Assembly (NCBI GenBank): GCA_018817515.1
Contig: JAHIUD010000044.1
Coordinates: 7,031 to 71,030 of the forward strand
DNA from: Pseudomonadota bacterium
Lineage (GTDB): Bacteria; Desulfobacterota; Desulfovibrionia; Desulfovibrionales; Desulfovibrionaceae
DNA: 64,000 nucleotides
Direction of reading: 5' to 3'
Shown: one piece after another, positions 1,930 to 44,330 of the stretch
How positions within the stretch are numbered: the first letter of the stretch is position 1
How the letters are laid out: each line of letters begins with the position of its first letter
Program-made: the position numbers and the translations under genes
Notes under the pieces: generated by a model
The model's database searches: none
Seen by the model: only the letters and a program-made list of their open reading frames with translations
Told to the model about the DNA's origin: nothing

Positions 1930-1937
1930 GGGGCCTT

Positions 1938-2738: not shown

Positions 2739-2754
2739 CCAAGGCAGGTCTCCC

Positions 2755-4245: not shown

Positions 4246-4257
4246 GAGAAGGACACC

Positions 4258-4964: not shown

Positions 4965-4974
4965 GGAGGACGCC

Positions 4975-5364
4975 ATGGACACCAAGAACAAGCGCGAGAA
5001 GGGTTCCGCAACGTTGGAGTTCGGCCTGGCAGTGGCCCTGGTGCTGGCACCGATGCTGCTCGGCCTGGTCGACTTCGGCCGCTACCTGGACGTGAGCCAC
5101 ACGGTGTCGCGCGCAGCCCACGAGGGCGTGTTCGAGGCCTCGCGCGGGCACGACCCGTTGTTCAGCGTGCAGAACTACGTGCAAAGCTCCGGGCTCGATC
5201 CGGCCAAGGTCAGCGTGAGCCTGACCCCGCCCCTGGACGGCTCCACGCGCGGCCAGGCCATGCAGATCACCGTTTCCTACAATCTCTCCGGCTATGCCCT
5301 GGCCACCTGGGGAGGTCTCTTTCCGGAGGCCTTCTCCACCAAGGCCACGGCGCGGCGCGAGTGA
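4975..5364 (+). CDS. TadE-like pseudopilin (second copy)
   Basis: GSATLEFGLAVALVLAPMLLGLVDFGR. RBS GGGAGGA. Confidence 0.8.
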   Translation: MDTKNKREKGSATLEFGLAVALVLAPMLLGLVDFGRYLDVSHTVSRAAHEGVFEASRGHDPLFSVQNYVQSSGLDPAKVSVSLTPPLDGSTRGQAMQITVSYNLSGYALATWGGLFPEAFSTKATARRE

Positions 5365-5377
5365 GCGGGAGGACATC

Positions 5378-6565: not shown

Positions 6566-6606
6566 GAACAGGTCCAGGACCAAGTGAAGCAGCCAGGAGA
6601 CGCGCC

Positions 6607-7854: not shown

Positions 7855-7862
7855 GGTGACCC

Positions 7863-9335: not shown

Positions 9336-9345
9336 GGAGGCTGCC

Positions 9346-10311
9346 ATGCCCGGCCTCATCGCCCTGATCCTGGCCCTGGCCACCCTGTTCTTCGTGCTGT
9401 TCGTCATGAACGCCGTGGGTGCTGCGGCGCGCAAGCGCCACGAGCGCGTGGGCGAGCGGGTAAAGGCCCTGGCCCTGGCCGGGCCGGATGTCTCAAGCCA
9501 GGACATCGTGCGCCGCTCGGTCTTAAGCGAGGTGCCCTGGTTCCACCGCCTGCTGGCCGACATGAACTGGATCCGCGACTTTGAGCGCGTCATCCGCCAG
9601 GCCAAGATGACCGGCACCCCCGGCATGTACGTGCTGCTCTCCGCCGTCCTGGCCGTGGCGGGCTTTGGGGCGGCGCATCTCTTCACGGGCTCGTCCCTGG
9701 CCGCCTTGATAGCGGCATCGCTCCTCGGCCCGCTGCCCGTGGTGCGTGTGTACCGTCGCCGTGCGGCGCGCATGCAGAACCTCCAGCGCCAGCTGCCCGA
9801 CGCGCTGGATTTGATCGCCCGCGCCCTCAAGGCCGGCAACACCTTTGCCGGGGGCATGCGCATGGTGGCCGACGAGTTCGCCGACCCCATCGGCCCGGAG
9901 TTCGGCATCACCCTCGATGAGATCAACTTCGGCATGGACACCGAGAAGGCCCTGCACAACCTCATGGAGCGCGTGGACTCACTCGACCTCAAGTTCTTCG
10001 TGGTTTCGGTGAACATCCAGCGCGAGACCGGCGGCAACCTCTCGGAGATCATCGGCAACACGGCCGCGCTCATCCGCGAGCGCTTCAAGATATATGGCCG
10101 CATCCGCATCCTTTCGGCGGAGGGCCGTATCTCGGCCATCGTGCTCCTGGCCATGCCCTTTGCGGCGGCGGGCGTCTTGTACCTGATCAAGCCCGACTAC
10201 ATGCTGCAGCTCGTCACCGAGCCCTTGGGCCAGCTCATGGTCAAGTCCGCCCTGGTGTCCATGACCATCGGCTATTTCATCATCCGGCGCCTGGTCAATT
10301 TCAAGGTCTAG
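9346..10311 (+). CDS. tadB: TadB inner-membrane platform protein (T2SSF family)
   Basis: LPDALDLIARALKAGNTF and ETGGNLSEII motifs. RBS GAGGAGG. Confidence 0.9.
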   Translation: MPGLIALILALATLFFVLFVMNAVGAAARKRHERVGERVKALALAGPDVSSQDIVRRSVLSEVPWFHRLLADMNWIRDFERVIRQAKMTGTPGMYVLLSAVLAVAGFGAAHLFTGSSLAALIAASLLGPLPVVRVYRRRAARMQNLQRQLPDALDLIARALKAGNTFAGGMRMVADEFADPIGPEFGITLDEINFGMDTEKALHNLMERVDSLDLKFFVVSVNIQRETGGNLSEIIGNTAALIRERFKIYGRIRILSAEGRISAIVLLAMPFAAAGVLYLIKPDYMLQLVTEPLGQLMVKSALVSMTIGYFIIRRLVNFKV

Positions 10312-10321
10312 GAGGCGCGCC

Positions 10322-11284
10322 ATGAACAACGGCATGCTCATCCCGCTTTTGGCCTCGGTCCTGGCCTTCGCCTCGGTGCTGCTCCTGGGCTTCGGCGTGC
10401 TCAGCGCCCAGCGCGAGGCCGAGCGCTTTTCGCGCCTGCGCCAGAAGGTGGCCGGGTACGCGGGGGTCAACGATGCGCTTGCTCCCGCCGAGTCCGTGGC
10501 GGTTCGCCTGGGCCGCATGCTGGCCGAACTGGTCCGCGGCCTGGGCGCGCGCCTGGGCCCGAAGGAACAGGAAAGCCTGGGCCAGACGAAGCTCGACCTC
10601 ATCCGCGCGGGTCTGCGTGGGCCGGGCGCGGTGCAGGCCTTTCATGGGGCCAAGGCCGCGCTCATGCTCATCCCGCCCAGCCTGTACCTCGGCGTGGTCT
10701 GGATCATGCCCAAGGCCCCGTCCGTGCAGGTCGTTGTCATCGGGGCGCTGGCCCTGGCCAGCCTGGGCGCGGTGCTGCCGGGCATGTGGCTGCGCCGCCG
10801 CATGGCCGCCCGGCGCTTGTCGCTGCTTTGCGAGCTGCCCGACGCGCTCGACCTGCTGGTGGTCTGCGTGGAGTCCGGCATGGGCCTGGACCAGGCCATC
10901 CACCGGGTCAGCGAGGAGCTGCGCGAGTCCGCCCCGGTGATCAGCGGTGAGCTGCGCACCATGACCCTGGAGATGCGCGCCGGACGCCAGCGCCAGCAGG
11001 CCCTGAAGGATCTGGCCGAACGCACGGGCATCGAGGACGTGCAGAGCCTGGTGACGCTGCTCGTACAGGCCGACACCTTCGGCATCAGCGTCGCGCGCAC
11101 CCTGCGCGTGTATTCCGACACCTTGCGCACCAGCCGGTTCCAGCGCGCCGAGGAGACCGCCGCCAAGCTGCCCACCAAGCTCATGTTCCCGCTGGTGCTG
11201 TGCATCTTCCCGGCGCTGTTCGTGGTGCTCATCGGCCCGGCGGTGTTGCAGCTTTCCCACGTCTTCGCCCGCATGGGCCAGTGA
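10322..11284 (+). CDS. tadC: TadC inner-membrane platform protein (T2SSF family)
   Basis: LPDALDLLVVCVESGMGLDQAI and AAKLPTKLMFPLVLCIFPALF. Confidence 0.9.
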   Translation: MNNGMLIPLLASVLAFASVLLLGFGVLSAQREAERFSRLRQKVAGYAGVNDALAPAESVAVRLGRMLAELVRGLGARLGPKEQESLGQTKLDLIRAGLRGPGAVQAFHGAKAALMLIPPSLYLGVVWIMPKAPSVQVVVIGALALASLGAVLPGMWLRRRMAARRLSLLCELPDALDLLVVCVESGMGLDQAIHRVSEELRESAPVISGELRTMTLEMRAGRQRQQALKDLAERTGIEDVQSLVTLLVQADTFGISVARTLRVYSDTLRTSRFQRAEETAAKLPTKLMFPLVLCIFPALFVVLIGPAVLQLSHVFARMGQ

Positions 11285-11296
11285 AAGGAGGCCCTC

Positions 11297-12463
11297 ATGC
11301 GCTTGATATTACGTTTCTGGAGAGGCCTCGGCCCGCTGCCGCTCATTGCCGCCCTGGCGCTCCTGCTCCCGGCCTGCGCCGCCCGGCAGGACAACGCCAG
11401 CGCGGATCTGCTTGATCCTGCCAATTCGGCGCGGCAGGAGTTCGTGGCCGACGTCCAGTTCAACGCAGGCCGCCTGCTGCTGGCGGTGCGGGGCTACGAC
11501 AAGGCCCTTGTGGCGCGGCCTGGCGATGTCGGGCTGCTGGTCAAGAAGGGCCAGGCTCTGTTGCGCCTGAACCGACTCGACGAGTCCTTGGAGGCCTTCC
11601 GCTTGGCCGTGGCTGCCAGCCCGGAGTCTTCCGGCGCGCACTACGGGGCAGGGCAGGCCAGCGAGCGGCTGGGCAGGCGCGACGAGGCCCGGCAATCCTT
11701 TGAGCGCGCCGTGGCCCTGGCTCCGGGCAGTTGGCGCGCGCGCTGCCATCTGGGCGTGCTGTTCATGAACCAGGGCCAGCCGGACAAGGCCGAGGAACAG
11801 TTTCTGGCGGCTCTGGCCACGCCCAGATTCCAGGCGCAGGCCGTGGCCCAGGCTGGAACATCTTCCGGAGCCCAGGCCGTGCCAGGACGCGAGGAACTGC
11901 TGAACAACCTGGCCGTGGCCCAGGTCTTGGCTGGGCGGCCTGAAACGGCGGTAAAGACCTTCCGCCTGGCCATGCAGGGCTCCCGCGATCCTGAGCGCAG
12001 CGCCAACAACCTGGGCCTGCTGCTGGTGCGCCTGGGCCGCCCGGCAGAGGCCCTGGACGCCTTCCGCGCTGGCGGCAGCGACGCCCGCGCCCTGAACAAC
12101 CTGGGCTACGCCTTGTACCTCCAGGGCGAGGTTGTCCGGGCCCAGGCCCTGTTCGAGAAGGCGCTGGACCTCTCGCCCGCGTATTACGTAACCGCAGGCG
12201 AGAACCTGAAGCAGGCGGTTGGCGGCGCACCGGCCGCTCCGACTAATATCGGCCTGGGTGCAGGGCAAAGCGCCGGAAGCCCTGGCGAGGCTGCTGCCCA
12301 GGGCAGGCCCAAGGACCGTGGCCACGGGGTCAGCACCACCAGCGAGGCCGCACCCCGTCTGGATTTGGAGCGCCTGTCGCTGACTGGGCGGGACGGAGAA
12401 GACCAGCATTTCGGCCAAGCCAGGCTGCTTGGCGAGGGCGCGGGACGGCAGTGGGCGTACTAG
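11297..12463 (+). CDS. tadD: TPR-repeat lipoprotein, TadD-like
   Basis: Lipobox LLLPAC and multiple TPR units. It is the terminal gene of the tad cluster. The C-terminal ~120 aa are low complexity. Confidence 0.72.
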   Translation: MRLILRFWRGLGPLPLIAALALLLPACAARQDNASADLLDPANSARQEFVADVQFNAGRLLLAVRGYDKALVARPGDVGLLVKKGQALLRLNRLDESLEAFRLAVAASPESSGAHYGAGQASERLGRRDEARQSFERAVALAPGSWRARCHLGVLFMNQGQPDKAEEQFLAALATPRFQAQAVAQAGTSSGAQAVPGREELLNNLAVAQVLAGRPETAVKTFRLAMQGSRDPERSANNLGLLLVRLGRPAEALDAFRAGGSDARALNNLGYALYLQGEVVRAQALFEKALDLSPAYYVTAGENLKQAVGGAPAAPTNIGLGAGQSAGSPGEAAAQGRPKDRGHGVSTTSEAAPRLDLERLSLTGRDGEDQHFGQARLLGEGAGRQWAY

Positions 12464-15073: not shown

Positions 15074-16294
15074 CTAGAGCGCTTGCTTGAGCAGGGGCAG
15101 GCGGCGCAGCACGAAGTGTGTCAGCGGGAAGGTCAGGCCGATGCCAAGCGCCGTCACCGCGAAGAACGACTGAAGCGGGCCCAGGCTGGTTCCGGCCAGC
15201 GCATACTGGAGCAGCGTCACCACAGGCACGTGGAAGACGTAGACCGCAAATGCATTGTCCGACAAGATCTTCATCAGCCTTGTCTGCTGGGGAAAGCGCT
15301 CCCTGGTCAGGGTCAAGAGCCCGGCGCAGAAACCCACGCAGAGCACGCTCTCCCACACCGCGCGGTTGGCTGCGGCAATGGAGAACCCGCCGATCCTGAT
15401 GGGCAGGGGCAGCCCCGCGCCGCGTGCCATCCAAACAACCACACAGGCCGCCCCGATGCCGAGCCAGGTCCAGCCCGCGCGGGCCGGGAAGCGTTCGAAC
15501 CAGTCGCGGCGCGCAGCCACAATGCCGAGCACGAACATGGTCACGTACTGCGGCATGTGCGCGAACTCGATCTCCCAGATGCCCAGCAGCACCTTCCAAT
15601 CGTCCACGCTCCACCAGATGCGGATGAGAAACGTGCTGGCCGCGAGCCAGAGCGTCAGCCCGGCCAGGGCCAGATGCGCCGTGTGCGCGGCGATGGGCTC
15701 GGTTGGGCGTTTTGATGGGGCCGTGTCACGTCCGCCGGCCAGGAGCCGGTACAGCGCGTACACGCCGCCGAAGATGAACAGGTTCTCGATGAACCAGAGG
15801 TGGATGAACTCAAGATGGATGCCGGGGTCGCCGGGCCAGCCCAGCGGCCTGTCGGCGATGCCCAGGTACACGCCCTGGAAGAAATCCCAGTAGGGTACGG
15901 CGGGCAGGTGCTTGAAGAGCACCTCGTGGTAGTAGATGAAGATGGGGGTGATGCCCAGGACCATGAGCGCGGCGGGCACGCCGAAGCGCCACAGGCGGTC
16001 CAGCACGAAGCGGCCCGGCCCCTTGCGGTCCACGCTGCCGGGGTGGAAATACCCGGCCATGAGGAAGAACAGGCCCATGAAGAAGGCCTCGTTGACGCCG
16101 AAGAAGAGGTGGATCCAGTGCGAGCGCAGCGGCGACTGGAACAGCCACCAGCCATCGCTGCCGTAGGGCTGGCCCGCGTGGTGCGCTACCACCAGCATGG
16201 ACAGGAAGACGCGCACGTTGTCGATGTAGGCCAGACGGCTGCCGGGCTTGGCCGGTGGGATCAGGGCCGGTGGGATCAGGGCGGATGCGCTCAC
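15074..16294 (-). CDS. acyltransferase family 3 membrane protein
   Basis: YIDNVRVFLSMLVVAHHAG N-terminal signature and about 10 TM segments. Confidence 0.85.
   Translation of the reverse strand: MSASALIPPALIPPAKPGSRLAYIDNVRVFLSMLVVAHHAGQPYGSDGWWLFQSPLRSHWIHLFFGVNEAFFMGLFFLMAGYFHPGSVDRKGPGRFVLDRLWRFGVPAALMVLGITPIFIYYHEVLFKHLPAVPYWDFFQGVYLGIADRPLGWPGDPGIHLEFIHLWFIENLFIFGGVYALYRLLAGGRDTAPSKRPTEPIAAHTAHLALAGLTLWLAASTFLIRIWWSVDDWKVLLGIWEIEFAHMPQYVTMFVLGIVAARRDWFERFPARAGWTWLGIGAACVVVWMARGAGLPLPIRIGGFSIAAANRAVWESVLCVGFCAGLLTLTRERFPQQTRLMKILSDNAFAVYVFHVPVVTLLQYALAGTSLGPLQSFFAVTALGIGLTFPLTHFVLRRLPLLKQAL
16252..16281. repeat. perfect 15-bp tandem duplication (2 copies) in the acyltransferase 5' end
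   Basis: ccggtgggatcaggg occurs twice in tandem and encodes ALIPP-ALIPP. Confidence 0.9.
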
Positions 16295-27137: not shown

Positions 27138-28301
27138 TCACTTTGGCGGGGTAAGTCCGGTGGTCCAGCCCAGCTCGCGCAGGCGCATGGCAATCGCGCG
27201 GGCGGCCAGGGCGTGGGCGTGGGCGTTCCAGTGGCCGTCGGTTTTGAAGGCAAAGGGCTGGTGGTGCTGTCCGAAGTCCCTGCTGAACACCGGGTGCAGG
27301 TCCATGAAGGGGATGGAGAGCCGCGCGGCCTCCTCTGCCGCCATGCGGTTCAGGCGGAGCGCACCTGTGGTGTAGTCCTGGGCCTGGGCGCTGCCCGCTT
27401 CACCCCGCTCGATGGGTCCGCGCACGCCGTCCATGACCAGGAGCAACCTAACCCCGGCCTGGGCTGTTTCCGCAGCCAGCCGCCCGAAGAGATACGCCGT
27501 GGCGCGGCGGTCCAGGGCCTCGCGCCCGGCCAGGTCGCTGATGTCGATGTTGGCCTGGTACTTGCCTGGCTGTTCCTGCTGCAGGAAAAGTCGGCGCAAG
27601 CCCTCGAAGCGCACCTGCCGCCCGTAGGCCAGGTAGCGCCAAGTGGCGCTCAGGTCGCGGATGCGTGAGGTCAGGCCCTGCCGGTACGACGCTGGCGTGA
27701 GCTCCGTCACGGAACCACCGGCTCCCTCGCCCTGTTCCAGGCGCAGGTGCAGAAAGCTCTTGGTGTACATGCCCGGCACGTCGCGCCAGGATTCGTCAAA
27801 GTCATTGTGCACCAGAAGCACCACGAGCACGTCCGGCCTGGCTGGCAGGGCGGCCTTGCGGGCCATGTGCAGATACTGCGAGAGCGGCGCGCCGCTTGCG
27901 CCGTAGCGGTACACCTCCGTGCCCGGGCCCAGGTCCCGTTCGAGGTCTTCGGCCATACTCTGATCCGGCGGCACCTGCAGGGCCTCCACGAACGAGTCGC
28001 CAACCAGGGCGATGCGCTGCTGGCCGGGAGTGCGTGCAAGCGGATAGTCCGCGCGGGCCGAGTTCCAGCCCTGGGCGTTGATGCTGAAGGGCGCGCGCAC
28101 GTCTCCCGACCAGTACGTGCCGCGCTGGCCGGGCCTGTGGCGCAGCACGCCGTCGATGAAGGCTGGTGCAGGCAGGTCCGGGGCCGGGACCACGAAGCGG
28201 AAGAACAGCTCCGCAGCCAGCAGCAGCACGAGCAGGCTGGCGGGAACGAGCAGGAGGCTTGTGAGCAGCTCGGAATGTTTGCGGGCGAAGCTCTGGGACA
28301 T
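27138..28301 (-). CDS. membrane-anchored SGNH/GDSL-family hydrolase or acyl-esterase
   Basis: Start at MSQSF with an N-terminal TM anchor. SGNH blocks VGDSF, GASGAP, HNDFDE and DGHWN. The 693-aa ORF in the track was trimmed. Confidence 0.65.
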   Translation of the reverse strand: MSQSFARKHSELLTSLLLVPASLLVLLLAAELFFRFVVPAPDLPAPAFIDGVLRHRPGQRGTYWSGDVRAPFSINAQGWNSARADYPLARTPGQQRIALVGDSFVEALQVPPDQSMAEDLERDLGPGTEVYRYGASGAPLSQYLHMARKAALPARPDVLVVLLVHNDFDESWRDVPGMYTKSFLHLRLEQGEGAGGSVTELTPASYRQGLTSRIRDLSATWRYLAYGRQVRFEGLRRLFLQQEQPGKYQANIDISDLAGREALDRRATAYLFGRLAAETAQAGVRLLLVMDGVRGPIERGEAGSAQAQDYTTGALRLNRMAAEEAARLSIPFMDLHPVFSRDFGQHHQPFAFKTDGHWNAHAHALAARAIAMRLRELGWTTGLTPPK

Positions 28302-29529: not shown

Positions 29530-30417
29530 CTAAATAGTCTTGAGCAGGCTCGATGTATAGCTGTTGATGGTGCTGCTGGAGATATTATTCGCATAGTAGG
29601 TCTTGTAATTGCTTTCCTTGGCCTTGATGGCCGCCTGCACTTCGCTCAGCTCGAGCGTGCCATCCTTGTCCGTGTCCAGCTTGTCGAAGGCTGTGGTTGA
29701 AAGGGCGGCCTCGGTGCGGGACAGACTTCCGTCCTTGTCCGCGTCCTTGTTCGTGACGAAGCTGACTGCGGCCTTTGCGGAATACGTGCTGTCGCTTGCC
29801 GCGGGCGTGAGCTTGGTGTTCTCAAGCAGGCTTGCCAGCGTGTTGGAAATGCTGCTGCTGGTGCCATTGGTCTCGTAGAAGGCCTCTACGGTCGACTCCT
29901 GGTCCGTAAGGCCGGCGCGGATTTCCTTCTGGCTGAGCACGCCGTTGCCGTCCGTGTCCAGCTTGTCGAAGGCTTTCGCGGAGAGGCCTGCCTCGGTGCT
30001 GGAGAGAGTGCTGTTCCCGTCCTTGTCGTTTTCCTTGATGTACTTTGCGGCGGCGAGGTTGGCGTAGGTGTCCGTGAGCGAGCCTGCCGAGTCCTCGAGC
30101 AACGACGTGGTATTGTCGTTTTTGCTGCTGGCCTTCCTGTTCGTGTAGTATGCCTGGATGGCGGCATCCTGGCCCTTGAGGCCGTCCTTCATCTCCGAAA
30201 GGTCGATCTTGCCGTTCTTGTCGGCGTCGAGCTTGTCAAAGGCCTCCTGGGAAAGGGTGACCTCGTCGATGGTCAGGCACTTGTCCTTGTCCTTGTCGTT
30301 GTCCTTCACGTATTTGGCGGCGGCCAGATTGGAGTACGTGCCTTCGGGCAGGCCCGAGGTCGCGTCACCGTTGGCGTACATATACTGCAAGTTGGCCAGC
30401 TTGGGATTGATGCGCAT
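29530..30417 (-). CDS. EF-hand repeat protein (three ~80-aa tandem units, each with two DxDxDG-type loops)
   Basis: Start at MRINPK with GGGGGGAAAA upstream. Loops DNDKDKDKCLTIDE, DADKNGKIDLSE, ENDKDGNSTLS, DTDGNGVLSQKE, NKDADKDGSLS and DTDKDGTLELSE. The 608-aa ORF in the track was trimmed. Confidence 0.75.
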   Translation of the reverse strand: MRINPKLANLQYMYANGDATSGLPEGTYSNLAAAKYVKDNDKDKDKCLTIDEVTLSQEAFDKLDADKNGKIDLSEMKDGLKGQDAAIQAYYTNRKASSKNDNTTSLLEDSAGSLTDTYANLAAAKYIKENDKDGNSTLSSTEAGLSAKAFDKLDTDGNGVLSQKEIRAGLTDQESTVEAFYETNGTSSSISNTLASLLENTKLTPAASDSTYSAKAAVSFVTNKDADKDGSLSRTEAALSTTAFDKLDTDKDGTLELSEVQAAIKAKESNYKTYYANNISSSTINSYTSSLLKTI

Positions 30418-30561: not shown

Positions 30562-31308
30562 ATGAAACGAGCGATGGTCCTGACCCTGGCGCTGAGCGTA
30601 TTTTCCACCCCGGCCCTGGCTGGCTGGGCCGATATGCTGGACAAGGTGCAGACGCAGCTGCCTGCGGCCTCTTCGTCCTCTTCCAGTGGCATCAACGCCA
30701 ACCTGTCCGAGCTCGACGCCAGCAAGGGGCTCAAGGAAGCCCTGGCCAAGGGCACCCAGAAGGCCGTGGCCGCGCTGGGCAAAAGCGACGGTTATTTCGG
30801 CAACCAGGCCGTGAAGATTCTGCTGCCCGAGTCGCTGCAGAAGCTGGAGACGCCCCTGCGCCTGGCCGGACAGGGCAAGCTTGTGGATGACCTTGTGCTG
30901 GCCATGAACCGCGCGGCGGAGAAGGCCGTGCCCCAGGCTGCGAACATCCTGGGCGATGCCGTGAAGAACATGAGCGTGCAGGACGCCAAGGGAATTCTCT
31001 CCGGACCGCAGGACTCCGCCACGCAGTATTTCCGCAAGTCCAGCGGAACGAAGATCGGCGAGATGATGCAGCCCATCATCACCAAGGCCATGGACAGCGT
31101 GGGCGTGGGCAAGGCCTTCAACAAGCTGGCCGCCAACCCGCTGGCCGCGGGCCTGGCCCAGAACTACGGCCTGGACCTGAACGGCTACGTCAACGCCAAG
31201 GCCCAGGACGGGCTGTTTACGCTCATCGCCCAGGAGGAGAAGAGCATCCGCGAAAACCCGGCTGCGCGCACCACGGAGATTCTGAAGAAGGTCTTCGGCG
31301 GGAGCTAG
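30562..31308 (+). CDS. DUF4197-like periplasmic protein
   Basis: Signal peptide MKRAMVLTLALSVFSTPALA. Composition and length match DUF4197 as recalled (GLKEAL...). Confidence 0.65.
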   Translation: MKRAMVLTLALSVFSTPALAGWADMLDKVQTQLPAASSSSSSGINANLSELDASKGLKEALAKGTQKAVAALGKSDGYFGNQAVKILLPESLQKLETPLRLAGQGKLVDDLVLAMNRAAEKAVPQAANILGDAVKNMSVQDAKGILSGPQDSATQYFRKSSGTKIGEMMQPIITKAMDSVGVGKAFNKLAANPLAAGLAQNYGLDLNGYVNAKAQDGLFTLIAQEEKSIRENPAARTTEILKKVFGGS

Positions 31309-31321
31309 GGGATAACAACAC

Positions 31322-31349
31322 GGCGGCCCGGACATCCGCCCGGGCCGCC
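31322..31349. terminator. GC hairpin between convergent genes (possible bidirectional terminator, weak U-tracts)
   Basis: ggcggcccgg-acatccgc-ccgggccgcc. Confidence 0.4.
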
Positions 31350-31369: not shown

Positions 31370-32680
31370 CTACCAGTACAGGCCGGTGACGGGCACGTCC
31401 ACGCCCGCGAGGTCAAGCCTGCCGTTCAAATCCATGATGCTGTGCCCCGCGCGCCAGGGCAGGTCGCGCCAGGCGAGGCCGGGGAAGGAACGCGAGATGA
31501 CGATGGTGTCGCTCTCGCCGATGACCTTCGGAGCGTTGTCGGAGATCATCCGGCGCAGGTCCGGCAGGTGCTCCAGGGCATAGGCCATGTGGCTGCCGCT
31601 GTAGGCCACGGCGTAGATGGCCGGGTCGTAGATGCGGATCTGCACGCCCGCCTTGTCCAGTAGCGAACCAAGGATGACCAGGGGCGAGTCGCGCAGGTCG
31701 TCGGTGCGCTCCTTGAAGGCCAGGCCGAAAAGCCCCACGGACTTTGTGCCCGTGGCCATGATGCGCTCGGCCACGGCGCGTATCTGGGCCAGGTTGGATT
31801 CCTCCACGTGGGCCAGCATGGGCACCTTGACGCCAGCGCGGCGGCCATAGGTGTTCATGGCTGCGAGGTCCTTGCCCAGGCAACTGCCGCCGTAGGCGAA
31901 GCCGGGCTTGAAATACACCGGCGAGATGTTCAGCTTGGTGTCCAGGCAGAACACATCCATCACCGGCCGCGAGTCCACGCCCATGGACTTGCACAGCGCG
32001 CCGATCTCGTTGGCGAAGGTCACCTTCACCGCGTGGAAGCAGTTGTCCGCGTATTTGGCCACCGCCGCCGTGAGCGGGTCGGTGAAGACCACCGGGGCCT
32101 CGATGCCGGGATACAGGCTCTCGCAGAACTGTCTGCCGCAGCTCCCGCTGCAGCCGAAGACGATCTTGGACGGGTGGAAGAAGTCCTCGATGGCGTTGCC
32201 CTCGCGCAGGAACTCCGGGTGCACCACGTAGGCCGGGCTCTGGCGGCCCGCCAGGCGTTCCTCCAGCTTGGCGAGGATGTCCTGGTGTACCACGGGCAGG
32301 GCCGTGGAGCGCACCAGCATGGGACAGGTGCGTCCGCTCTCCAGGCGCAGGTCGGCGATCTCCAGGACCACCTTCTCCAGCACGCGCTGGTCCACGAAGC
32401 CGTCCGCCGCAGGCGGGGTGCCCACGCACAGCAGGCAGGCGTCTACGTCCTTGAAGGCCTCACGGCCATCAGTGGTGGCGCGGATGCGGCCCGTGGCCCG
32501 GTGCTTGTGCAGCATCTCCGGCAGTCCGGGCTCGACCATGGGGCTCTTGCCGGCGTTGATGAGCTCAACCTTGCCGGGGTTGGGGTCCGTGCCGACCATC
32601 TCGTGGCCCATCTCCGCCAGGCAGGCCATGGTGGTGCTGCCCACATAGCCAAGTCCGTAAACCGCGATCTTCATAAACAA
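31370..32680 (-). CDS. algD: GDP-mannose 6-dehydrogenase (AlgD-like nucleotide-sugar dehydrogenase)
   Basis: About 436 aa. GLGYVG Rossmann fold, KSPMVEPGL, VHPEFLREGNAI, KVTFANEIG, PGFAYGGSCLGKD, FKERTDDLRDSP and a C-terminal GLYW, close to P. aeruginosa AlgD as recalled. Confidence 0.82.
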   Translation of the reverse strand: MFMKIAVYGLGYVGSTTMACLAEMGHEMVGTDPNPGKVELINAGKSPMVEPGLPEMLHKHRATGRIRATTDGREAFKDVDACLLCVGTPPAADGFVDQRVLEKVVLEIADLRLESGRTCPMLVRSTALPVVHQDILAKLEERLAGRQSPAYVVHPEFLREGNAIEDFFHPSKIVFGCSGSCGRQFCESLYPGIEAPVVFTDPLTAAVAKYADNCFHAVKVTFANEIGALCKSMGVDSRPVMDVFCLDTKLNISPVYFKPGFAYGGSCLGKDLAAMNTYGRRAGVKVPMLAHVEESNLAQIRAVAERIMATGTKSVGLFGLAFKERTDDLRDSPLVILGSLLDKAGVQIRIYDPAIYAVAYSGSHMAYALEHLPDLRRMISDNAPKVIGESDTIVISRSFPGLAWRDLPWRAGHSIMDLNGRLDLAGVDVPVTGLYW

Positions 32681-32714
32681 TCCGATGATTTTGCGAAGCT
32701 CCCCTCCGCTTGCT

Positions 32715-34280
32715 TCAGGAGGCGGTGGAGAAGCCCAGGATGCTCATCAATGTGCCAAAGGCTGGCGGCCTCAGCACGCCTATATATATCAATATAACAA
32801 ATAGGAACGTCATAACATAGAATACCGTCAGGTAGAGTGCAATGGAATTCTTGACCATCCATTTGAGGCCCTCTGCGGGCGAGTAGCGTTGATCCTGGCG
32901 GTTTGCCCAGCGTTGGTTGGGCAGCCGGAAGAGCAGGTAGACCTTCACCGCGGCGTTCACCATTTGGTTGATGTACAGCACGAATGGATAGCTCATTTCG
33001 ATGCGTCGATCATGGTAGAAGATGAGGCAGGCCAGGAACAGGCGCGTGAGCATGACCCAGAGCAGGTACGAGGTCCAGTAGGCCTTGCTGACGATGAACC
33101 CGGCAAAGAGCAGGGCCAGGGGCGCGGCCAGGGAAGTCCACATGGCGATGCGCTGGTCCATGATGCACCACCAGATGAAGAAGCCCACGCGCCGGGGCCC
33201 CAGGGCGATGGCCCGGGCGCCGTTGCGGAGCATGTTGCCGCTCCAGCGCAGCAGGTTCTGGACCATGCGGCTGTACATGTCCTCCGCGCGGATGGTGTCC
33301 ACGGTCCAGCACATGGCGTCGGGCACGTAGAGCATTTCCGCGCGGTCCTTCAAGAGCGCGTACCAGGTGCTTTTGTCGTCGCCGGAGAGGAAGCGGAAGC
33401 GGCCCCACAGCCAGTGGTCAAGGCTGTCGGCCTCGATAAGGCGGATGAACTGGAGGTCCGTGACCTTCTTGGCGCGGAAGATGGACAGCCGCCCGGTGAG
33501 GGTGAGCACCTTGCCCGCCAGGGCGTGGGACTGCATGGCCATGTGCCGCTGGGCGAAACGCAGGTCGAACCAGCGGCGCAGCAGCTTCGGCCCATAGAGG
33601 ATGGGCTGCTCGTCGGTGGTCAGGGCGTGCATGTTCGGCCTGAGGGCGAACAGCGGCAGGCAGCGCTTGAGGCAGCCGGGGCCCAGGATGGTGTCGCCGT
33701 CGATGAAGACCACGGGCGTGTCGCGGCCGATCTTCTGGCGCGAGATGGCCCGCAAGGCCAGTCCGATGGCGATGCGCTTGCCCGGCTGGTTCTGGCGCAC
33801 GAAGACCACCTCGAGCTTGATGTTCCTGCCGAAGCGGTTGACGCTCTCCTGGATGATCTTTTCGTCCGCTGTGGTGCCGGACCCTACGAAGATGCGCGCG
33901 GGCACGCCGATGCGCTGAACCTCGTGGATGATGGCCAGGATGACCTTCTCGGTGACCACGCGCTCCTCGTAGAAGGTGGTCATCATGAACACGACTTCCT
34001 CGGGCCGCCAGCCGTGGTTCCAAAGGTAGTCGGCCTTGCCGCGCAGCTTGGGGAAGACGACCCTGCCGTAGATGATGGCGCGCACGAAGTGGGTGGTCCA
34101 CCAGACATAGCGCCAGATGCCCAGGTAGGCCATGACCAGGATCCACTGGCCCCGGTCCGCGTCCCAGATGTTGTTGGGGAGGTTGAGAAAGCCCACGACC
34201 ATGACGCCGAAGTACAGGAAGAGCTTGAGCAGCTCCTCCGCCTTCCAGCGGAAGGGACCCTGGTGTGCTACCCGTGCCAT
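32715..34280 (-). CDS. alg8: Alg8-like family-2 glycosyltransferase (polymannuronate/alginate synthase catalytic subunit)
   Basis: Blocks shared with P. aeruginosa Alg8 as recalled: GIWRY, THFVR, LRFAQRH, LTGRLSIFRAK, DSLDHW..FRFLSGDDKSTW, YVPDA, DQRIAMWTSL, YINQ..KVYLLFRL. Confidence 0.85.
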   Translation of the reverse strand: MARVAHQGPFRWKAEELLKLFLYFGVMVVGFLNLPNNIWDADRGQWILVMAYLGIWRYVWWTTHFVRAIIYGRVVFPKLRGKADYLWNHGWRPEEVVFMMTTFYEERVVTEKVILAIIHEVQRIGVPARIFVGSGTTADEKIIQESVNRFGRNIKLEVVFVRQNQPGKRIAIGLALRAISRQKIGRDTPVVFIDGDTILGPGCLKRCLPLFALRPNMHALTTDEQPILYGPKLLRRWFDLRFAQRHMAMQSHALAGKVLTLTGRLSIFRAKKVTDLQFIRLIEADSLDHWLWGRFRFLSGDDKSTWYALLKDRAEMLYVPDAMCWTVDTIRAEDMYSRMVQNLLRWSGNMLRNGARAIALGPRRVGFFIWWCIMDQRIAMWTSLAAPLALLFAGFIVSKAYWTSYLLWVMLTRLFLACLIFYHDRRIEMSYPFVLYINQMVNAAVKVYLLFRLPNQRWANRQDQRYSPAEGLKWMVKNSIALYLTVFYVMTFLFVILIYIGVLRPPAFGTLMSILGFSTAS

Positions 34281-37081
34281 GCCTGCTGCCGGATCAGGAA
34301 GAAGAGGTTCACGGGCGTGACCTCGCCGCCCAGCAGGCCGGTCATGGCGGGAGTCTCCTCCTTGCCGTTCAGCGTTTCATAGACCAAGAGGGAGCGCACG
34401 GCCTTCTGGGTGTCGAAGGTGCCGCCCTTCTTGGCGTACTCGAACCCGGCACGGGCCCGTTTCTCATCGATGGGGGCCGTGGACTTGGCGAACTCGTAGT
34501 GGATGTCGCTCTTGGCGATGTGCTCGCGCAGGAAATCGTAAGCCTTGAGCACGGGCTCCTTGAACTGCCCGGTGATGAGCGCAATCTCCAGCCAGGACTC
34601 CAGGCCGTAGGCCTGGTAGTGCAGCGAGTTGCGCTCCTTGTGGTCCAAGGTCTCGCCCGTGGTCGCGTCGATGTTGGTCTTGAGGTGCGCCTGGGCCTCG
34701 GCCAAGGCCTTGTCGTAGGTGGCGTGGTCGTCCAGGGCGCGCGCCAGGAGCAGAAGCATCTTGATCTGGTGGGTGCGGTAGTTGTTGAACTGGCTCTTCT
34801 CGCCGTACTTCCAGGCCAGCTTGGCGTCGCGCATGCGCGCGAACCAGCCGAGCACGCTGGCGCGGTCCTGCTCGCTCATGTCGCAGCGCGCCAGGTCAAA
34901 GGCGTAGACCATCTTGTCCAGGCGCGTCTCGTCGATGGGATGTCCGGTGGGCTTGTTGGTCTTGGCCCAGGCCAGCAGGATGGCCGTGGCCCGGTCCAGG
35001 TACTTGCGCTCGCCCAGGACCCGGAAGGCCAGGGCCAGGTTCGCGGCGTTGTCGGCGTCCTGGAAGGCGCGGCGCGAGGCCATGAAGTCCGGGTCGTTCT
35101 TGTCCGTCTGGCCTGCGCTTTTGAGCGTGGCCACCGGGACCGGGGCCTTGTTCACGGCCTTTTCGGCCTCTGCGGCCAGTTGGGCGCGCGCGGGTGCGCT
35201 CAGGCTCTCGGGCTTGATCTGTGTGGAGAAGTGGCCCGGCCAGAGCAGGGACAGGTTGTCCTTGCAGGAGGTGGCGGCATCGGGCCAGACAGCGGCCCTG
35301 GTTGCGTTCTGCTGCCCGGACACGGGCACCAGCACTTGAGTTCCGGCCTCGGTCCGCTTGCTGGTGGGGCCCTGCATGCGCACAACCTCCCGGTATTCAT
35401 AACTCATGGCCTGGTTGACGGCCTTGGCTTCCTCGGCCTTGTCTGCGTCGGAGCGGAAGAAATTGAACAGGCTGGCCAGCAGCCGGTTCGAAGGGTTGCG
35501 GGAGAAGTTCACGGTGCACGGGGTGCCGGTCTCGATGTCCTTGACCTCGACATTGCGCCCGTCCTTGACGAAGAACAGCGTGGCCACGGCGGTGCGGTCC
35601 ACGGTGGTGCGCCAGTGATAGCGGCTGTCGGTTTCGTTGATGAACCCTCGCGAGCGGTCGATCTGGATGACCCGGGCCTCACGCTCGATGTTGAGCGAGG
35701 GGATGAAGACCTTGGCCACGGAGCCCAGGCGCACCTGGGTGGACTCGGCCTGGGTCAGGAATACCTCCAGGTAGCGGCTGTCGGAGCGCTCGAGCACGGC
35801 CAGATTGTCGCCGCGGTCCACGGTGTTGCCGGGGGTCTTGAGCACGCGCACCACATGGCCGTCAAAGGGCGCGCGCAGGATGAGCTCGCCGCCATTTTCG
35901 CCGTCATTCGGGCCGCCGTTCCCGCCGCCGACTCCACGGCCTGCGTTGCCCAGGCCGCTTTCCAGCTCGGCCACGCTTTTGCGCGCGGCCTCGATCTCGC
36001 CATTGAGGCCATAGCCCCGGCCCTCGATGCGGTCGCCGGAGAAGAACAGCCCGGAGCGGTTGAGTCCGCTTATGGCGACATGCGCGACACGCAGGTCGTT
36101 CTTGGCCAGGGCCAGGTCGTTCTCCAGCTTCTCCACCAGCTGCTGTGAGGATTCCAGCTCGGACTTGCTGATGACTCCCTGAGACTCCAGGGCCCTTTTT
36201 CGCTTGAGGTCATTCTTGGCCAGGGCGAGGTCCTGGCCCACGGCGGTGACGCGGTCCGAGGCGCTGGTCAGGCGCGAGTCGCCGACCTTGCCGTAGATGC
36301 CGCGGGCGGCATGTTCCGCGTTGCGTTGCGCCAGCAGGGTCTCCAGGCGGTAGCGGGCCGTGTTCAGGGCGATGAGGGCGTTGTAGCCAGCGCCGCCGTT
36401 GTTGGCGCCCTGCCCCATGAGCTTGATGACCGGCTCGCCCAGTTTGACGCTGCGGTCCACCGGGATAATGAGCCGTTCGAAGATGCCCGACACCGGAGCC
36501 ACAAGGGGTTCTGTGGGGGCAACGACGACCCCTGCCTCCACTTCGATGCGCATGAAGTTGGCGTAGAGCGTGATGCCGATGTAGGTGAGGATGCCGCCGC
36601 CCAGCAGCAGGTACATGAGCAGGATGAGCATGCGCTTGGTGCTGCGGTGTGCCGGAACGGTATTGGCCTCTTCCACGAGGTCCATGTCCACGGGGGTGAC
36701 GGGCATGTCCACCCGACGGATGGCGTCCTGGAAGCAGGCCATCTCGCCGGCGAGCAGCCCTTCGCTGAAGTACTTGAGCAATTCGAGGTTTTCTTCGCTG
36801 ATGTCCTCGAACTGCACCGCCAACATTCCGTCACCGTCGCGCGGTGCGCGGACCACCTTGGAGGCCTGGCTGAAACTGATGTTGAAACCGCGAAAGTCGA
36901 TGAGTAGCTTGGGATTGAAGATCTCGTCCTTCTTCAATATCCCTTGGTAGCCATCCAGGCGGAAGCCACCCATGCTCCAGTCCGCAGCCTTGTACAGCTT
37001 CCCCTCGACCTCCACGTGAATGGGCACGGAGAGGCGGTAGTGGAGCCGCTGGCTGGGTGTTTCTCGCGTTACTTCAGGCAC
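34268..37081 (-). CDS. Alg44-like PilZ / TM / HlyD-type periplasmic adaptor fused to a C-terminal alginate-lyase-like (PL5/AlgL-type) domain
   Basis: PilZ motifs RLHYR and DWSMGG, plus LLKYFSEGLLAGE as in Alg44. One TM segment, then a coiled-coil/HlyD-like region. The C-terminal ~300 aa carry LLAW, FNNYRTHQ and ERNSLHYQAYGLESW, resembling the Alginate_lyase family. 13-nt overlap with alg8. Confidence 0.78.
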   Translation of the reverse strand: MPEVTRETPSQRLHYRLSVPIHVEVEGKLYKAADWSMGGFRLDGYQGILKKDEIFNPKLLIDFRGFNISFSQASKVVRAPRDGDGMLAVQFEDISEENLELLKYFSEGLLAGEMACFQDAIRRVDMPVTPVDMDLVEEANTVPAHRSTKRMLILLMYLLLGGGILTYIGITLYANFMRIEVEAGVVVAPTEPLVAPVSGIFERLIIPVDRSVKLGEPVIKLMGQGANNGGAGYNALIALNTARYRLETLLAQRNAEHAARGIYGKVGDSRLTSASDRVTAVGQDLALAKNDLKRKRALESQGVISKSELESSQQLVEKLENDLALAKNDLRVAHVAISGLNRSGLFFSGDRIEGRGYGLNGEIEAARKSVAELESGLGNAGRGVGGGNGGPNDGENGGELILRAPFDGHVVRVLKTPGNTVDRGDNLAVLERSDSRYLEVFLTQAESTQVRLGSVAKVFIPSLNIEREARVIQIDRSRGFINETDSRYHWRTTVDRTAVATLFFVKDGRNVEVKDIETGTPCTVNFSRNPSNRLLASLFNFFRSDADKAEEAKAVNQAMSYEYREVVRMQGPTSKRTEAGTQVLVPVSGQQNATRAAVWPDAATSCKDNLSLLWPGHFSTQIKPESLSAPARAQLAAEAEKAVNKAPVPVATLKSAGQTDKNDPDFMASRRAFQDADNAANLALAFRVLGERKYLDRATAILLAWAKTNKPTGHPIDETRLDKMVYAFDLARCDMSEQDRASVLGWFARMRDAKLAWKYGEKSQFNNYRTHQIKMLLLLARALDDHATYDKALAEAQAHLKTNIDATTGETLDHKERNSLHYQAYGLESWLEIALITGQFKEPVLKAYDFLREHIAKSDIHYEFAKSTAPIDEKRARAGFEYAKKGGTFDTQKAVRSLLVYETLNGKEETPAMTGLLGGEVTPVNLFFLIRQQAWHG

Positions 37082-37582
37082 TTGAATGAAACCTCATGTT
37101 GCTGCTAAACGTACCTTCATGTGGGGCGGAGGTGATGTCCTGTCGCCCGAGGAAATGCTAAGCAATAATCATTCCGAAGAATATGCCAGTGTTGCGGATG
37201 CCCTTACCAAACATATGCGCAAGCAGAGTGTGCGATATCCAGCCTGACCCCTGTCAAATTGTTATCGGCAGAAGCGGTGGCGACATTAGTCTTGCTGATC
37301 GATTGGCGCAAGCTGGTGGGGACCCCTCGTGCCGGAAGATTACCCGAAAGATGTGCTGCACATCCAGCTGCTGTCAAGAGGGGCTGCCGAATTCCTCTTG
37401 ACGGCGAGGCTTGGCGTGGATAAGCAACATCTTCGTAACCGCCCTGCGTGACTGGCGAACGTGGAAGAAACCACGAGGAAGCGCAGGGTGCCCTAAGCCG
37501 CTCGCCTGGGCTTGCATCCCTCGAAACAGAGGGGTGCAACACCGACACCCTCCATCCGTTGGAGGCCCATTCGGAGGCGCCC

Positions 37583-42851: not shown

Positions 42852-44330
42852 ATGGAAAACTCCAAACAGCCCGTGATCCCCTCCGGCCGGCCCGGCGCCA
42901 CCATCCTCGTGGTGGACGACGACAAGAACATCCTGCAAGTGCTGGAGGCGCGGCTGGCCTTCGCCAAGTACAAGACCCTCACCGCCAGAAGCGCCGAGGA
43001 GGCCGTCGAGGTCCTGGCCGCTCAGCCGGTGGATCTGGTGGTCTCGGACGTGAAGATGCCTGGCATGGGCGGGGTGGGCCTGCTGCGCGAGGTGCTGGCC
43101 CAGTGGCCCCAGGTGCCGGTGATCCTGCTCACCGCCTATGGCAGTATCCCCGACGCCGTCAGCACCATCCGCTCCGGCGCGGCGGACTACCTGACCAAGC
43201 CCTTTGACGGGCACCAGCTTCTGGCCAAGATCGCCGATCTGCTGGGCCGGAGCACGGAAAAATCAGCACCCAAGGCCAAGCACCACAAGTCGTGCTTGAG
43301 CGAGCAGCTCTGGGGCGGCAAAAGCCCGGCCATGCGCGATTTCTACGCCCTCATGGAGCGCGTGGCGCCAACAGACGTCGCCGTGCTCATCCTGGGCGAG
43401 TCCGGCACGGGCAAGGAGCTCATCGCGCGCATCCTGCACGACCAGGGCCCGCGCGCCAAGGGGCCGTTTGTCATAGTGGACTGCGGCTCGACCCAGCCGA
43501 CCCTGCTTGAGAGCGAGCTTTTCGGCCACGTGAAGGGCTCCTTCACCCACGCCGTGCGCGACAAGAAGGGGCTCATGGAGGAGGCCGACGGCGGCACCCT
43601 GGTGCTGGACGAGATCGGCAACATCAGCCCGGAGATGCAGACCCGTCTGCTGCGCTTCCTGCAGGAGCGCACCATCCGCCGCGTCGGCGACACCCGCGCC
43701 ATCCCTGTGAACTGCCGGGTCATCGCCGCCACAAACGCCGATCTGCCCGCCCTGGTCAAGAAGGGCGAGTTTCGCGAGGACCTCTATTTCCGCCTCAAGG
43801 TGGTGACCCTCAAGGTGCCGCCCCTGCGCGAGCGCAAGGAGGACATCCCGCTGTTGACCGAGCGTTTCCTGGAGGCCTTCAGCCAGGATCAGAAGCGGCC
43901 CAAGGTGACGGCCTCGCCCGAGACTCTGCAGGTACTCATGGCCCACAGCTGGCCGGGAAACGTGCGCGAGCTCAAGCACGCCCTGGAGAGCGGCGTGGTG
44001 TTCTGCCGGGGGCAGGTGCTGGAGCCGAAGGATATTCAGCTGGAGCGGGCCGAGACCCTGCACGAGGCGGCCTTGGAGCCCGGTCCCGTGTCCGGTGCCG
44101 GGTCCTCTGGGGCTGGGCCTGGAGTCGGCCAGACCGAGGCCGCCTCTGCCGCCAGCGCGGATTCGCTTTCCCTTGAAGACAACGAGCACCAGGCCATCAT
44201 CCGCGCCCTGGAGCGCACTGCCTGGGTCAAGAAGACCGCCGCCGACCTGCTCGGCATCAGCCGCCGGGCCATCCACTACAAGATCAAGAAGTACAACATC
44301 CAGATTCCCGGCAAGGATCAGGACGAGTAG
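42852..44330 (+). CDS. sigma-54-dependent response regulator (NtrC family: REC, AAA+, Fis HTH)
   Basis: REC (ILVVDDD, VVSDVKMPG, TKP). Walker A GESGTGKE, GAFTGA-variant GSFTHA, and ELFGH. HTH TAADLLGISRRAIHYKIKKY. Confidence 0.93.
   Translation: MENSKQPVIPSGRPGATILVVDDDKNILQVLEARLAFAKYKTLTARSAEEAVEVLAAQPVDLVVSDVKMPGMGGVGLLREVLAQWPQVPVILLTAYGSIPDAVSTIRSGAADYLTKPFDGHQLLAKIADLLGRSTEKSAPKAKHHKSCLSEQLWGGKSPAMRDFYALMERVAPTDVAVLILGESGTGKELIARILHDQGPRAKGPFVIVDCGSTQPTLLESELFGHVKGSFTHAVRDKKGLMEEADGGTLVLDEIGNISPEMQTRLLRFLQERTIRRVGDTRAIPVNCRVIAATNADLPALVKKGEFREDLYFRLKVVTLKVPPLRERKEDIPLLTERFLEAFSQDQKRPKVTASPETLQVLMAHSWPGNVRELKHALESGVVFCRGQVLEPKDIQLERAETLHEAALEPGPVSGAGSSGAGPGVGQTEAASAASADSLSLEDNEHQAIIRALERTAWVKKTAADLLGISRRAIHYKIKKYNIQIPGKDQDE

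Follow-up and report, generated by a model that had tools for sequence, protein, structure and literature searches.

A predicted uronic-acid polymer operon with a lyase-fused Alg44-like protein in a Desulfovibrionaceae genome

Alginate-type synthases are generally treated as a trait of Pseudomonas and Azotobacter. What is made, and how is it secreted, when genes resembling the core of such a synthase stand in a genome of the Desulfovibrionaceae with few of the other alginate genes around them? This question is raised by three genes at positions 31370-37081 of a 64,000-nucleotide stretch of assembly GCA_018817515.1 (contig JAHIUD010000044.1, positions 7,031 to 71,030 of the forward strand), the whole of which is referred to below as the window. 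They encode an Alg44-like co-polymerase fused to an alginate-lyase-type domain, an Alg8-like family 2 glycosyltransferase (GT2), and an AlgD-like dehydrogenase. We consider it reasonably probable that they constitute a cyclic diguanylate (c-di-GMP)-gated, synthase-dependent operon for a uronic-acid polymer, most likely polymannuronate, the unmodified backbone of alginate.

Three consecutive minus-strand genes had been placed here by the initial annotation, and open reading frames (ORFs) are found at those coordinates, all co-directional. The elements of the locus are the following.

34268..37081, minus strand: Alg44-like co-polymerase fused to an alginate-lyase-type domain, 937 aa (Pfam, NCBIfam, BLAST, hidden Markov model (HMM), AlphaFold2 (AF2))
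32715..34280, minus strand: Alg8-like processive GT2 synthase, 521 aa (Pfam, BLAST, canonical HMM)
31370..32680, minus strand: AlgD-like nucleotide-sugar 6-dehydrogenase, likely ATG at 32674 (Pfam, PDB match, NCBIfam)
31322..31349, minus strand: GC-rich hairpin of 12 bp with 11 G-C pairs, 20 nt past the dehydrogenase stop
37082..37437, minus strand: non-coding upstream region of the operon, divergent from a BenE-type gene

The fusion gene starts with GTG, preceded by GAGG ~10 nt on its 5′ side, and its stop is overlapped by the GT2 start by 13 nt. The dehydrogenase is followed by the GC-rich hairpin, a probable terminator-like end of the transcription unit, and the next gene beyond it, encoding a DUF4197 protein (30562-31308), lies on the opposite strand; we therefore read the three genes as a single operon. 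Its regulation at the nucleic acid level is less distinct. A weak sigma-54-like match lies upstream at 37161-37176 (CGGAATGATTATTGCT) with 3 mismatches, and because such 3-mismatch matches are no commoner in the window than in shuffled sequence, and indeed fewer than chance would give, a sigma-54 promoter here is only a hint. The only element returned by an Rfam scan was a ZTP riboswitch belonging to the divergent BenE-type gene; none, and no c-di-GMP riboswitch in particular, could be tied to the operon.

The GT2 is a full-length homologue of Alg8, which bears out the earlier remark that the two share many sequence blocks. An alignment of 444 aa with 1 gap gives 38% identity to Pseudomonas aeruginosa Alg8 (E 2e-99), and an HMM of 75 canonical Alg8 sequences scores the protein at 384 bits, the canonical references having been assembled by rebuilding P. 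aeruginosa AlgD from a PDB alignment and using it to pull canonical alg operons from metagenomes. Pfam assigns it to Glyco_tranf_2_3 (E 1e-30), other GT2 models in NCBIfam are far off (NodC scores 29 bits), and homologues ~50% identical to it are labelled 'glycosyltransferase Alg8 / mannuronan synthase' by the Joint Genome Institute (JGI). A phmmer search against the GT2s of the PDB, among them BcsA and HAS, gave no match at E<=0.01, because Alg8 itself has, to our knowledge, no solved structure. The motifs IDGDT, SGDDKS, and LLRW align with their counterparts in P. aeruginosa Alg8, and DGD, SGDDKS, and RW are invariant in 13 homologues. We take them to correspond to D188/D190, D295/D296/K297, and LxxRW of Alg8, as reported for that enzyme by Remminghorst et al. 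(2009). From these sequence relationships the GT2 is a putative mannuronan synthase, which would make beta-1,4-polymannuronate from GDP-mannuronate.

A matching substrate could be supplied by the third gene. Its product contains all three UDPG_MGDP_dh domains (Pfam) and finds its best PDB match in AlgD (1mfz, 307 bits), compared with 222 bits for the best UDP-glucose dehydrogenase (UGDH). It has the same length as P. aeruginosa AlgD (436 aa) at 40% identity, is detected in the window by the canonical AlgD HMM with 322 bits, keeps the catalytic Cys in FAYGGSCLGKD, and ends in GLYW where AlgD has GICW, so that the AlgD-like character and the shared C-terminal G-x-x-W reported at the outset are upheld. 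NCBIfam UGDH equivalog models score it far below their cut-offs, and recognition there is at subfamily level only. The enzyme is probably a GDP-mannose 6-dehydrogenase.

The product of the first gene reads, from the N-terminus, as a PilZ domain (~11-105), a transmembrane helix (~143-177), a coiled-coil hairpin (~225-380), a beta-barrel (~400-526), a low-confidence linker (~528-600), and an (alpha/alpha)-toroid lyase domain (~600-937). Pfam locates PilZ at aa 11-105 and HlyD_3 at aa 402-496 and adds a Biotin_lipoyl-like lipoyl motif, and aa 181-477 match EmrA/HlyD/RND-adaptor models of NCBIfam. The hairpin helices predicted by AF2 (230-300, 306-342, and 356-377) are of the type found in HlyD/EmrA adaptors. 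The PilZ segment has the PilZ domain of Alg44 (4rt0) as its best PDB match, and the two motifs through which PilZ domains bind c-di-GMP (PMC8461298) are intact, RxxxR as R12-LHY-R16 and DxSxxG as D34-W-S-M-G-G; both are nearly invariant across the fusion family. With a single transmembrane segment, a periplasmic membrane-fusion-protein domain, intact PilZ motifs, and a place adjoining alg8, the protein is the Alg44-like PilZ/transmembrane/HlyD protein that had been proposed. Over the PilZ, transmembrane, and early adaptor part it aligns with P. aeruginosa Alg44 at 21% identity (BLAST, E 7e-9), and the canonical Alg44 HMM scores it weakly (34 bits, E 6e-10). At this identity and with an insertion of 150 aa, it falls short of sequence-level orthology to Pseudomonas Alg44, which measures ~389 aa and has no long hairpin. 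With the full fusion as query, phmmer found no PDB match at E<=0.01.

The C-terminal part is recognised as Alginate_lyase (PF05426) at aa 631-838 with 64.5 bits against a cut-off of 22.2. An AF2 model of this domain, made from an alignment of 22 sequences, reached a predicted local distance difference test (pLDDT) score of 88, and in a Foldseek search all 29 top-ranked matches were alginate lyases or PL5 relatives, with probability 1.0 for PL38, PL17, and PL5; they include PL38 BoPL38, PL17 enzymes, PL5 A1-III, AlgL (4ozv), and Smlt1473, at template-modelling (TM) scores of 0.5-0.6 and identities of 13-18%. At the sequence level the kinship is faint: phmmer matched no solved lyase, neither AlgL nor A1-III at E<=10, the hhalign match with the AlgL family was weak (E 0.0015, probability 17%), and the domain does not qualify as a PL5 member by sequence. 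Across the family N766/N767, H771, R817, and Y822 (full-length numbering) are invariant. The weak profile alignment lays NN(H) onto NNH202 of AlgL and the invariant Tyr onto Y256, and it also brings an RxxxxYxxY motif into register.

The fusion of this lyase to an Alg44-like protein is rare yet recurrent, in at least four independent taxa. An exhaustive search of 1.84 billion representative proteins gave ~12 clusters of the full-length fusion at 50% identity, 868-1047 aa long, whereas Alg44-like proteins without a lyase (510-560 aa) and stand-alone lyases (340-370 aa) were numerous; the word-indexed protein search returned only 11 fusions. At the level of loci, where a fusion was counted only if PilZ, adaptor, and lyase matches share one frame, a lyase-domain homologue lies between adaptor and GT2 in 17. 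It is fused in frame in the Desulfovibrionales clade (the window and L001, L007, and L009), a metagenomic contig (L005), an Acidobacteriales metagenome-assembled genome (MAG; L059), and an Eisenbacteria MAG (L072), and it is a separate gene in 6 loci (L011, L013, L016, L017, L023, and L033). Of the remaining lyase-linked loci, L006 runs off its contig end, and the high-G+C L010, L012, L024, and L071 show ambiguous long open frames, probably spurious, which were not counted as fusions. Because the fusion is found in at least four independent taxa, Rosetta-stone reasoning suggests that lyase and co-polymerase act together.

Relatives of the GT2 extend well beyond the sulfate reducers. The word-indexed search returned 1749 of them, and at least 557 genomes encode one when each species is represented by a single genome. 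The nearest are those of Desulfovibrionales bacterium GWA2_65_9 (90% identity), an uncultured Desulfocurvus (85%), Salidesulfovibrio brasiliensis (60%), and Desulfovibrio oxyclinae (59%, word-indexed search); others, ~50% identical, occur in Roseibium/Labrenzia, Pelagibius, Defluviicoccus, Bermanella, and Colwellia, and further in Planctomycetota, Acidobacteriales, Ca. Eisenbacteria, and Myxococcota. By these affinities the source of the window is most likely a Desulfocurvus-like species of the Desulfovibrionaceae. Phylogenetic placement of the GT2 had been proposed as a check by the initial annotation. In a neighbour-joining tree of 508 aligned columns (100 bootstraps, no outgroup), canonical Alg8 forms one clade with 100% bootstrap support that excludes the window protein, and the other clade holds all 78 environmental loci, the window included. 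The window GT2 shares ~49% identity with the other members of its clade and ~35% with canonical sequences. We regard the environmental clade as a putative deep sister of canonical Alg8/Alg44, a status that rests on finding no closer GT2 in PDB or NCBIfam. The locus is accordingly poorly described as the 'stripped-down' core it was first taken for, its GT2 belonging to a large separate clade that has a gene order and an Alg44 architecture of its own. As a side observation, two metagenomic loci (L103 and L119) form a deep branch inside the canonical Alg8 clade and pair an AlgD that is 83% identical to that of P. aeruginosa with an adjacent Alg8 that is only 54-55% identical to its Alg8.

The anatomy of these loci was tabulated for 80 species (L006-L085), with neighbourhoods taken as the 10 kb around the alg8-like gene. 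An Alg44-like gene sits directly 5′ of the Alg8-like gene in ~75 of the 80, the reverse of the Pseudomonas order. The median Alg44-like protein of the clade is 540 aa long, the canonical one 384 aa. The ~150-residue hairpin (window aa ~225-380), which canonical Alg44 lacks, occurs in 88-97% of clade members. An AlgD-like gene occurs in 35/80 neighbourhoods and ManC, the GDP-mannose pyrophosphorylase, in 20/80; because these genes recur beside the alg8-like gene, a GDP-mannose-derived substrate is suggested across the clade. The lyase-linked arrangement without AlgK/AlgE, in which the lyase gene lies between alg44 and alg8, makes up the basal grade of the clade, and several gammaproteobacterial MAGs show the order alg44-lyase-alg8-algD-manC-beta-helix/CBM96 without an AlgK or AlgE equivalent. 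In a large derived subclade that includes Roseibium, the loci additionally encode Sel1 (AlgK-like), MBOAT, and RTX/DUF4114 proteins together with two families without assigned identity.

Several accessory genes of these neighbourhoods deserve mention in their own right. In the gammaproteobacterial MAG loci L011, L013, L016, and L023 (~7-17 kb), manC is followed by a gene for an ~800-aa Beta_helix/NosD/CBM96 protein, possibly an AlgG-like epimerase or a second lyase. Among loci of the Roseibium/Labrenzia type (within L020-L085), a block conserved in ~30-36 species lies 3′ of alg8 and consists of a 434-aa protein with a faint DUF1574 match, Sel1, MBOAT, and a 649-aa protein without Pfam match, the last of which could be an outer-membrane component; an RTX + DUF4114 protein and a large PAS histidine kinase are encoded near it. 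NtrC-type sigma-54 response regulators occur within 10 kb of the alg8-like gene in 21/80 loci, adjacent to it in Rhodoplanes and Halopseudomonas, and bring to mind the control of alginate by AlgB/KinB. In the window, the nearest such regulator (42852-44330, plus strand) lies 5.8 kb upstream of the operon.

Whether the genes arrived recently, and whether they are maintained, can be addressed by composition and by comparison with the syntenic relative L001. The G+C content is 0.645 in the cluster and 0.661 in the window as a whole, and among stretches of the same size 19% have a value no higher than that of the cluster; G+C at third codon positions (GC3) is 0.88-0.92 in the three genes, the same as in their neighbours. 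The lower G+C noted by eye is thus normal variation. The flanking genes (BenE, DUF4197, EF-hand, Exo_endo_phos, SGNH, HI0933, and MatE) stand in the same order in L001, at 78% protein identity. With ordinary composition and a whole neighbourhood in synteny, we reject a recent transfer of the cluster and see no sign of the suggested acquisition. Against their L001 orthologues all three operon genes have ratios of nonsynonymous to synonymous substitution (dN/dS) of 0.28-0.31, and within the fusion gene the modules differ (PilZ ~0.06, adaptor 0.35, lyase 0.40). The three genes are maintained under purifying selection, and the lyase module is also constrained.

The search for the rest of an alginate pathway covered the 64 kb in six-frame translation, using canonical HMMs of 41-80 Pseudomonas-type sequences per protein. 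Those for AlgK, AlgE, AlgG, and AlgL found no match at E<=10, and profiles for MBOAT, Sel1, ManC, and beta-helix proteins from related loci found none at E<=1. AlgJ and AlgF, for which there were no dedicated canonical HMMs, were not seen in Pfam scans of the called genes. The reported lack of further alg genes therefore holds for equivalents of AlgK, AlgE, AlgG, AlgI, and AlgA, and fails for AlgX, to whose family an SGNH protein of the window matches. The other features that bear on the question, or flank it, are these.

27138..28301, minus strand: membrane-anchored SGNH protein with an AlgX/AlgJ-like C-terminal D-x-H-W (PF16822, Lipase_GDSL_2)
29530-30417, minus strand: EF-hand repeat protein with three ~85-aa repeats, each a canonical EF-hand
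15074-16294, minus strand: Acyl_transf_3 (AT3) membrane acyltransferase, at distances of 11 kb (SGNH gene) and 15 kb (operon)
1375-12463: complete Tad/Flp pilus cluster (prepilin peptidase, RcpC, secretin, TadE/G, TadZ, TadA, TadB, TadC, and a tetratricopeptide repeat (TPR) protein)

The SGNH protein matches PF16822 (ALGX) with E 1e-11, the canonical AlgX HMM weakly (E 1e-6), and Lipase_GDSL_2. Its FKTDGHWN aligns with FKGDHHWT of AlgX; it has an N-terminal transmembrane segment and a GDS block near the N-terminus, and the order of catalytic blocks is permuted relative to AlgX/AlgJ. The ORF finder extends the protein too far, to 693 aa; translation probably begins at the methionine of MSQSF. 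No relationship was detected between the SGNH protein and the 434-aa proteins encoded 3′ of alg8 in loci of the Roseibium type. A polysaccharide O-acetyl-transferase or esterase function is possible. The gene lies ~3 kb from the operon in another transcription unit, with two opposite-strand genes and a terminator-like hairpin between; it is found nearby in the close relatives L001, L006, and L009, was not detected in L007, and is absent in D. oxyclinae and Salidesulfovibrio, so that a link to the operon is unproven. The early idea that it acetylates the polymer thus retains the AlgX-family match and loses ground on the separate transcription unit and the lack of an MBOAT partner. Members of the AT3 family O-acetylate polysaccharides together with SGNH partners; for the AT3 gene of the window no link to the operon is shown.

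The EF-hand protein, whose 608-aa ORF-finder version is likewise an over-extension, matches lanmodulin and XopAW-type models, has no obvious signal peptide, and is kept beside the operon in close relatives only; the calcium-gelation role first imagined for it finds no support beyond that synteny. A connection of the EF-hand, DUF4197, or SGNH protein with the operon was considered and set aside, as each is linked to it only by synteny among close relatives and none stands beside more distant homologues. On the other flank, the divergent BenE-family transporter gene (ATG ~37583, end 38785) has a ZMP/ZTP riboswitch (RF01750) directly 5′ of it, at 37438-37518 on the plus strand (66.9 bits against a gathering score of 39), and is an unusual gene to find behind such a riboswitch. 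Just 5′ of the pilus cluster, a perfect sigma-54 consensus (TGGCACGCCTGTTGCT) lies at 916-931 on the plus strand, and the 3′ end of a sigma-54 activator gene occupies 6-620. Pfam scans took in nearly all other called genes of the window, whose functions are unrelated; they include sensor kinases, MprF, LarB/C/E-type proteins, MatE, an HI0933-type flavoprotein, an Exo_endo_phos protein, the BenE-type transporter, a metallophosphoesterase, a histidine kinase, the sigma-54 response regulator, a methyl-accepting chemotaxis protein (MCP), PpiD, aconitase, and a Liv-type ABC transporter.

How might the three proteins work together? The AlgD-like dehydrogenase would oxidise GDP-mannose to GDP-mannuronate, which the Alg8-like GT2 would polymerise while threading the chain across the inner membrane. 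Binding of c-di-GMP to the cytoplasmic PilZ domain of the Alg44-like partner would switch the synthase on, and the same protein would reach into the periplasm through its HlyD-type adaptor with the long coiled-coil hairpin. At the periplasmic end of the adaptor, beside the emerging chain, the lyase domain would probably degrade polymer that builds up in the periplasm, as free AlgL does in Pseudomonas, and may also set chain length.

Several observations weigh against this reading. The GT2 falls outside the characterised, Pseudomonas/Azotobacter-type Alg8 clade at 35-38% identity, so its substrate and linkage could differ from those of canonical Alg8, and the literature searches found no characterised member of the sister clade. 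In the BLAST alignment the position of Alg44 R95, which is needed for binding dimeric c-di-GMP (PMC8461298), is not Arg in the fusion protein. The full-length AF2 model of the fusion is of only low to moderate confidence (pLDDT 62) and was used for secondary-structure layout only. The position aligned with catalytic His202 of AlgL is Tyr768; Tyr is shared by the window protein and its relatives of at least 85% identity, while most other family members have His there and a few have Leu or Trp. The change could mean a weakened or altered lyase. The invariant His771, which lies one helical turn past the His202-equivalent position, may be the functional base of the domain. Finally, the 64-kb window lacks an outer-membrane export component, an epimerase, MBOAT, and a gene for GDP-mannose supply.

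The same observations feed three other explanations. The machinery might use another nucleotide sugar or linkage and make a different acidic polymer, for which the lyase would be specific. The distance of the GT2 from canonical Alg8 would fit such a product, as would the recognition of the dehydrogenase at subfamily level only and a lyase domain with no close solved relative, whose matches include chondroitin and glycosaminoglycan (GAG) lyases. We nevertheless find this unlikely, given a dehydrogenase clearly closest to AlgD by its PDB scores, the ManC and AlgD-like genes that recur beside clade members, and a set of top-ranked structural matches made up entirely of alginate lyases or PL5 relatives, with AlgL-like motifs in alignment. 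Alternatively, the covalent tether between lyase and co-polymerase could serve to cut the chains to unsaturated oligomannuronates, which would be kept in the periplasm or leave through general porins; the lack of AlgK/AlgE-type genes, both locally and in the whole basal lyase-linked grade, agrees with such an arrangement. This proposal is purely inferential, however, and we hold it to be decidedly unlikely: AlgL of Pseudomonas reportedly coexists with export of high-molecular-weight polymer (PMC8829089), the His-to-Tyr change may lower lyase activity, and export genes could sit elsewhere in the genome.

That last point leads to the third alternative, an ordinary split system: other parts of the genome would encode AlgK/E-like export proteins, an epimerase, and acetylation enzymes, and the operon would be the core of a complete alginate pathway. 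Only 64 kb of the genome are in view, derived members of the clade have Sel1 (AlgK-like), MBOAT, and other accessory genes beside alg8, and within the window itself the AlgX-like SGNH gene is 3 kb and the Acyl_transf_3 gene 15 kb away. The relatives in D. oxyclinae and Salidesulfovibrio, however, show only the trio within 10 kb, apart from a faint beta-helix match in one of them, and several unrelated lyase-linked loci also have no AlgK/E within 10 kb; we give this account only a slim chance. A c-di-GMP-gated operon for a uronic-acid polymer, most likely polymannuronate, remains our preferred reading.

A bolder proposal concerns the outer-membrane route. The lyase-linked systems without AlgK/AlgE could represent a distinct secretion class, in which the hairpin docks a TolC-like or other outer-membrane channel and the built-in lyase edits the chain. 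The hairpin is not a specific replacement for AlgK/AlgE, because it is also present in clade members that have an AlgK-like gene, and we judge the proposal rather unlikely. If true, it would amount to efflux-pump-like polysaccharide export that dispenses with the pair of TPR lipoprotein and porin. That pair is regarded as universal for synthase-dependent systems.

The sister clade includes sulfate reducers, marine Alphaproteobacteria (Roseibium/Labrenzia), wastewater Defluviicoccus, Acidobacteriales, Planctomycetota, and Myxococcota. Polymers described as 'alginate-like' have been reported from environmental biofilms, and the systems of this clade are candidate sources of them. It is debated whether AlgL works within the biosynthetic complex or as a free housekeeping enzyme; the recurrent fusion and the conserved alg44-lyase-alg8 order argue that lyase and co-polymerase work side by side in this lineage. 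As a compact unit, the three-gene operon also lends itself to heterologous production of a defined uronan, and it allows a direct test of outer-membrane crossing without AlgK/AlgE.

Divergent Alg8/Alg44/AlgD sets have been described before in environmental bacteria. In a survey of 1733 genomes, 'atypical' alginate operons without algKE and/or algGXLIJF are described, with Nitratiruptor, Dinoroseobacter, Thermovibrio, and Tolumonas among the examples, and the Desulfovibrio entries retrieved from it list Pel only and no alginate (Bundalovic-Torma et al., 2020; PMC7112194). Nothing relevant came from searching the literature for alg8/alg44 in Desulfovibrio and in MAGs or for an Alg44-lyase fusion, and we found no paper describing the size of the clade, its reversed gene order, its hairpin-bearing Alg44, or the Alg44-lyase fusion. 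Like the operon described here, the atypical operons are divergent Alg8/Alg44/AlgD sets, with losses of algKE and/or algGXLIJF; the present operon differs from them in the Alg44-lyase fusion and the coiled-coil insertion, which the survey does not report (PMC7112194).

Set against the P. aeruginosa alginate core, the window system shares an enzyme of GDP-mannose-dehydrogenase type, a GT2 with DxD/GDDKS/RW, and a PilZ-transmembrane-adaptor protein with RxxxR/DxSxxG. It differs in gene order (alg44-alg8-algD as opposed to algD-alg8-alg44) and in an Alg44-like protein that carries a ~150-aa hairpin and a fused lyase, and, unlike the canonical 12-gene alginate operon, it has no adjacent algK, E, G, X, L, I, J, F, or A. 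As in HlyD/EmrA adaptors, the periplasmic part is predicted to combine a ~70-residue helical hairpin with a beta-barrel; unlike them, it is joined to PilZ and paired with a glycosyltransferase in place of an ABC, MFS, or RND pump, and, unlike the tripartite exporters, it has no identified TolC-type partner. The lyase domain has the (alpha/alpha) toroid of AlgL (4ozv), A1-III (1qaz), PL38, and PL17, matches PF05426, and has its NN(H) and R...Y..Y in register with AlgL. Like AlgL it would be periplasmic, and it is encoded beside the synthase genes; unlike free AlgL, it is fused to the co-polymerase, with Tyr in the place of His202 and an invariant His one helical turn later.

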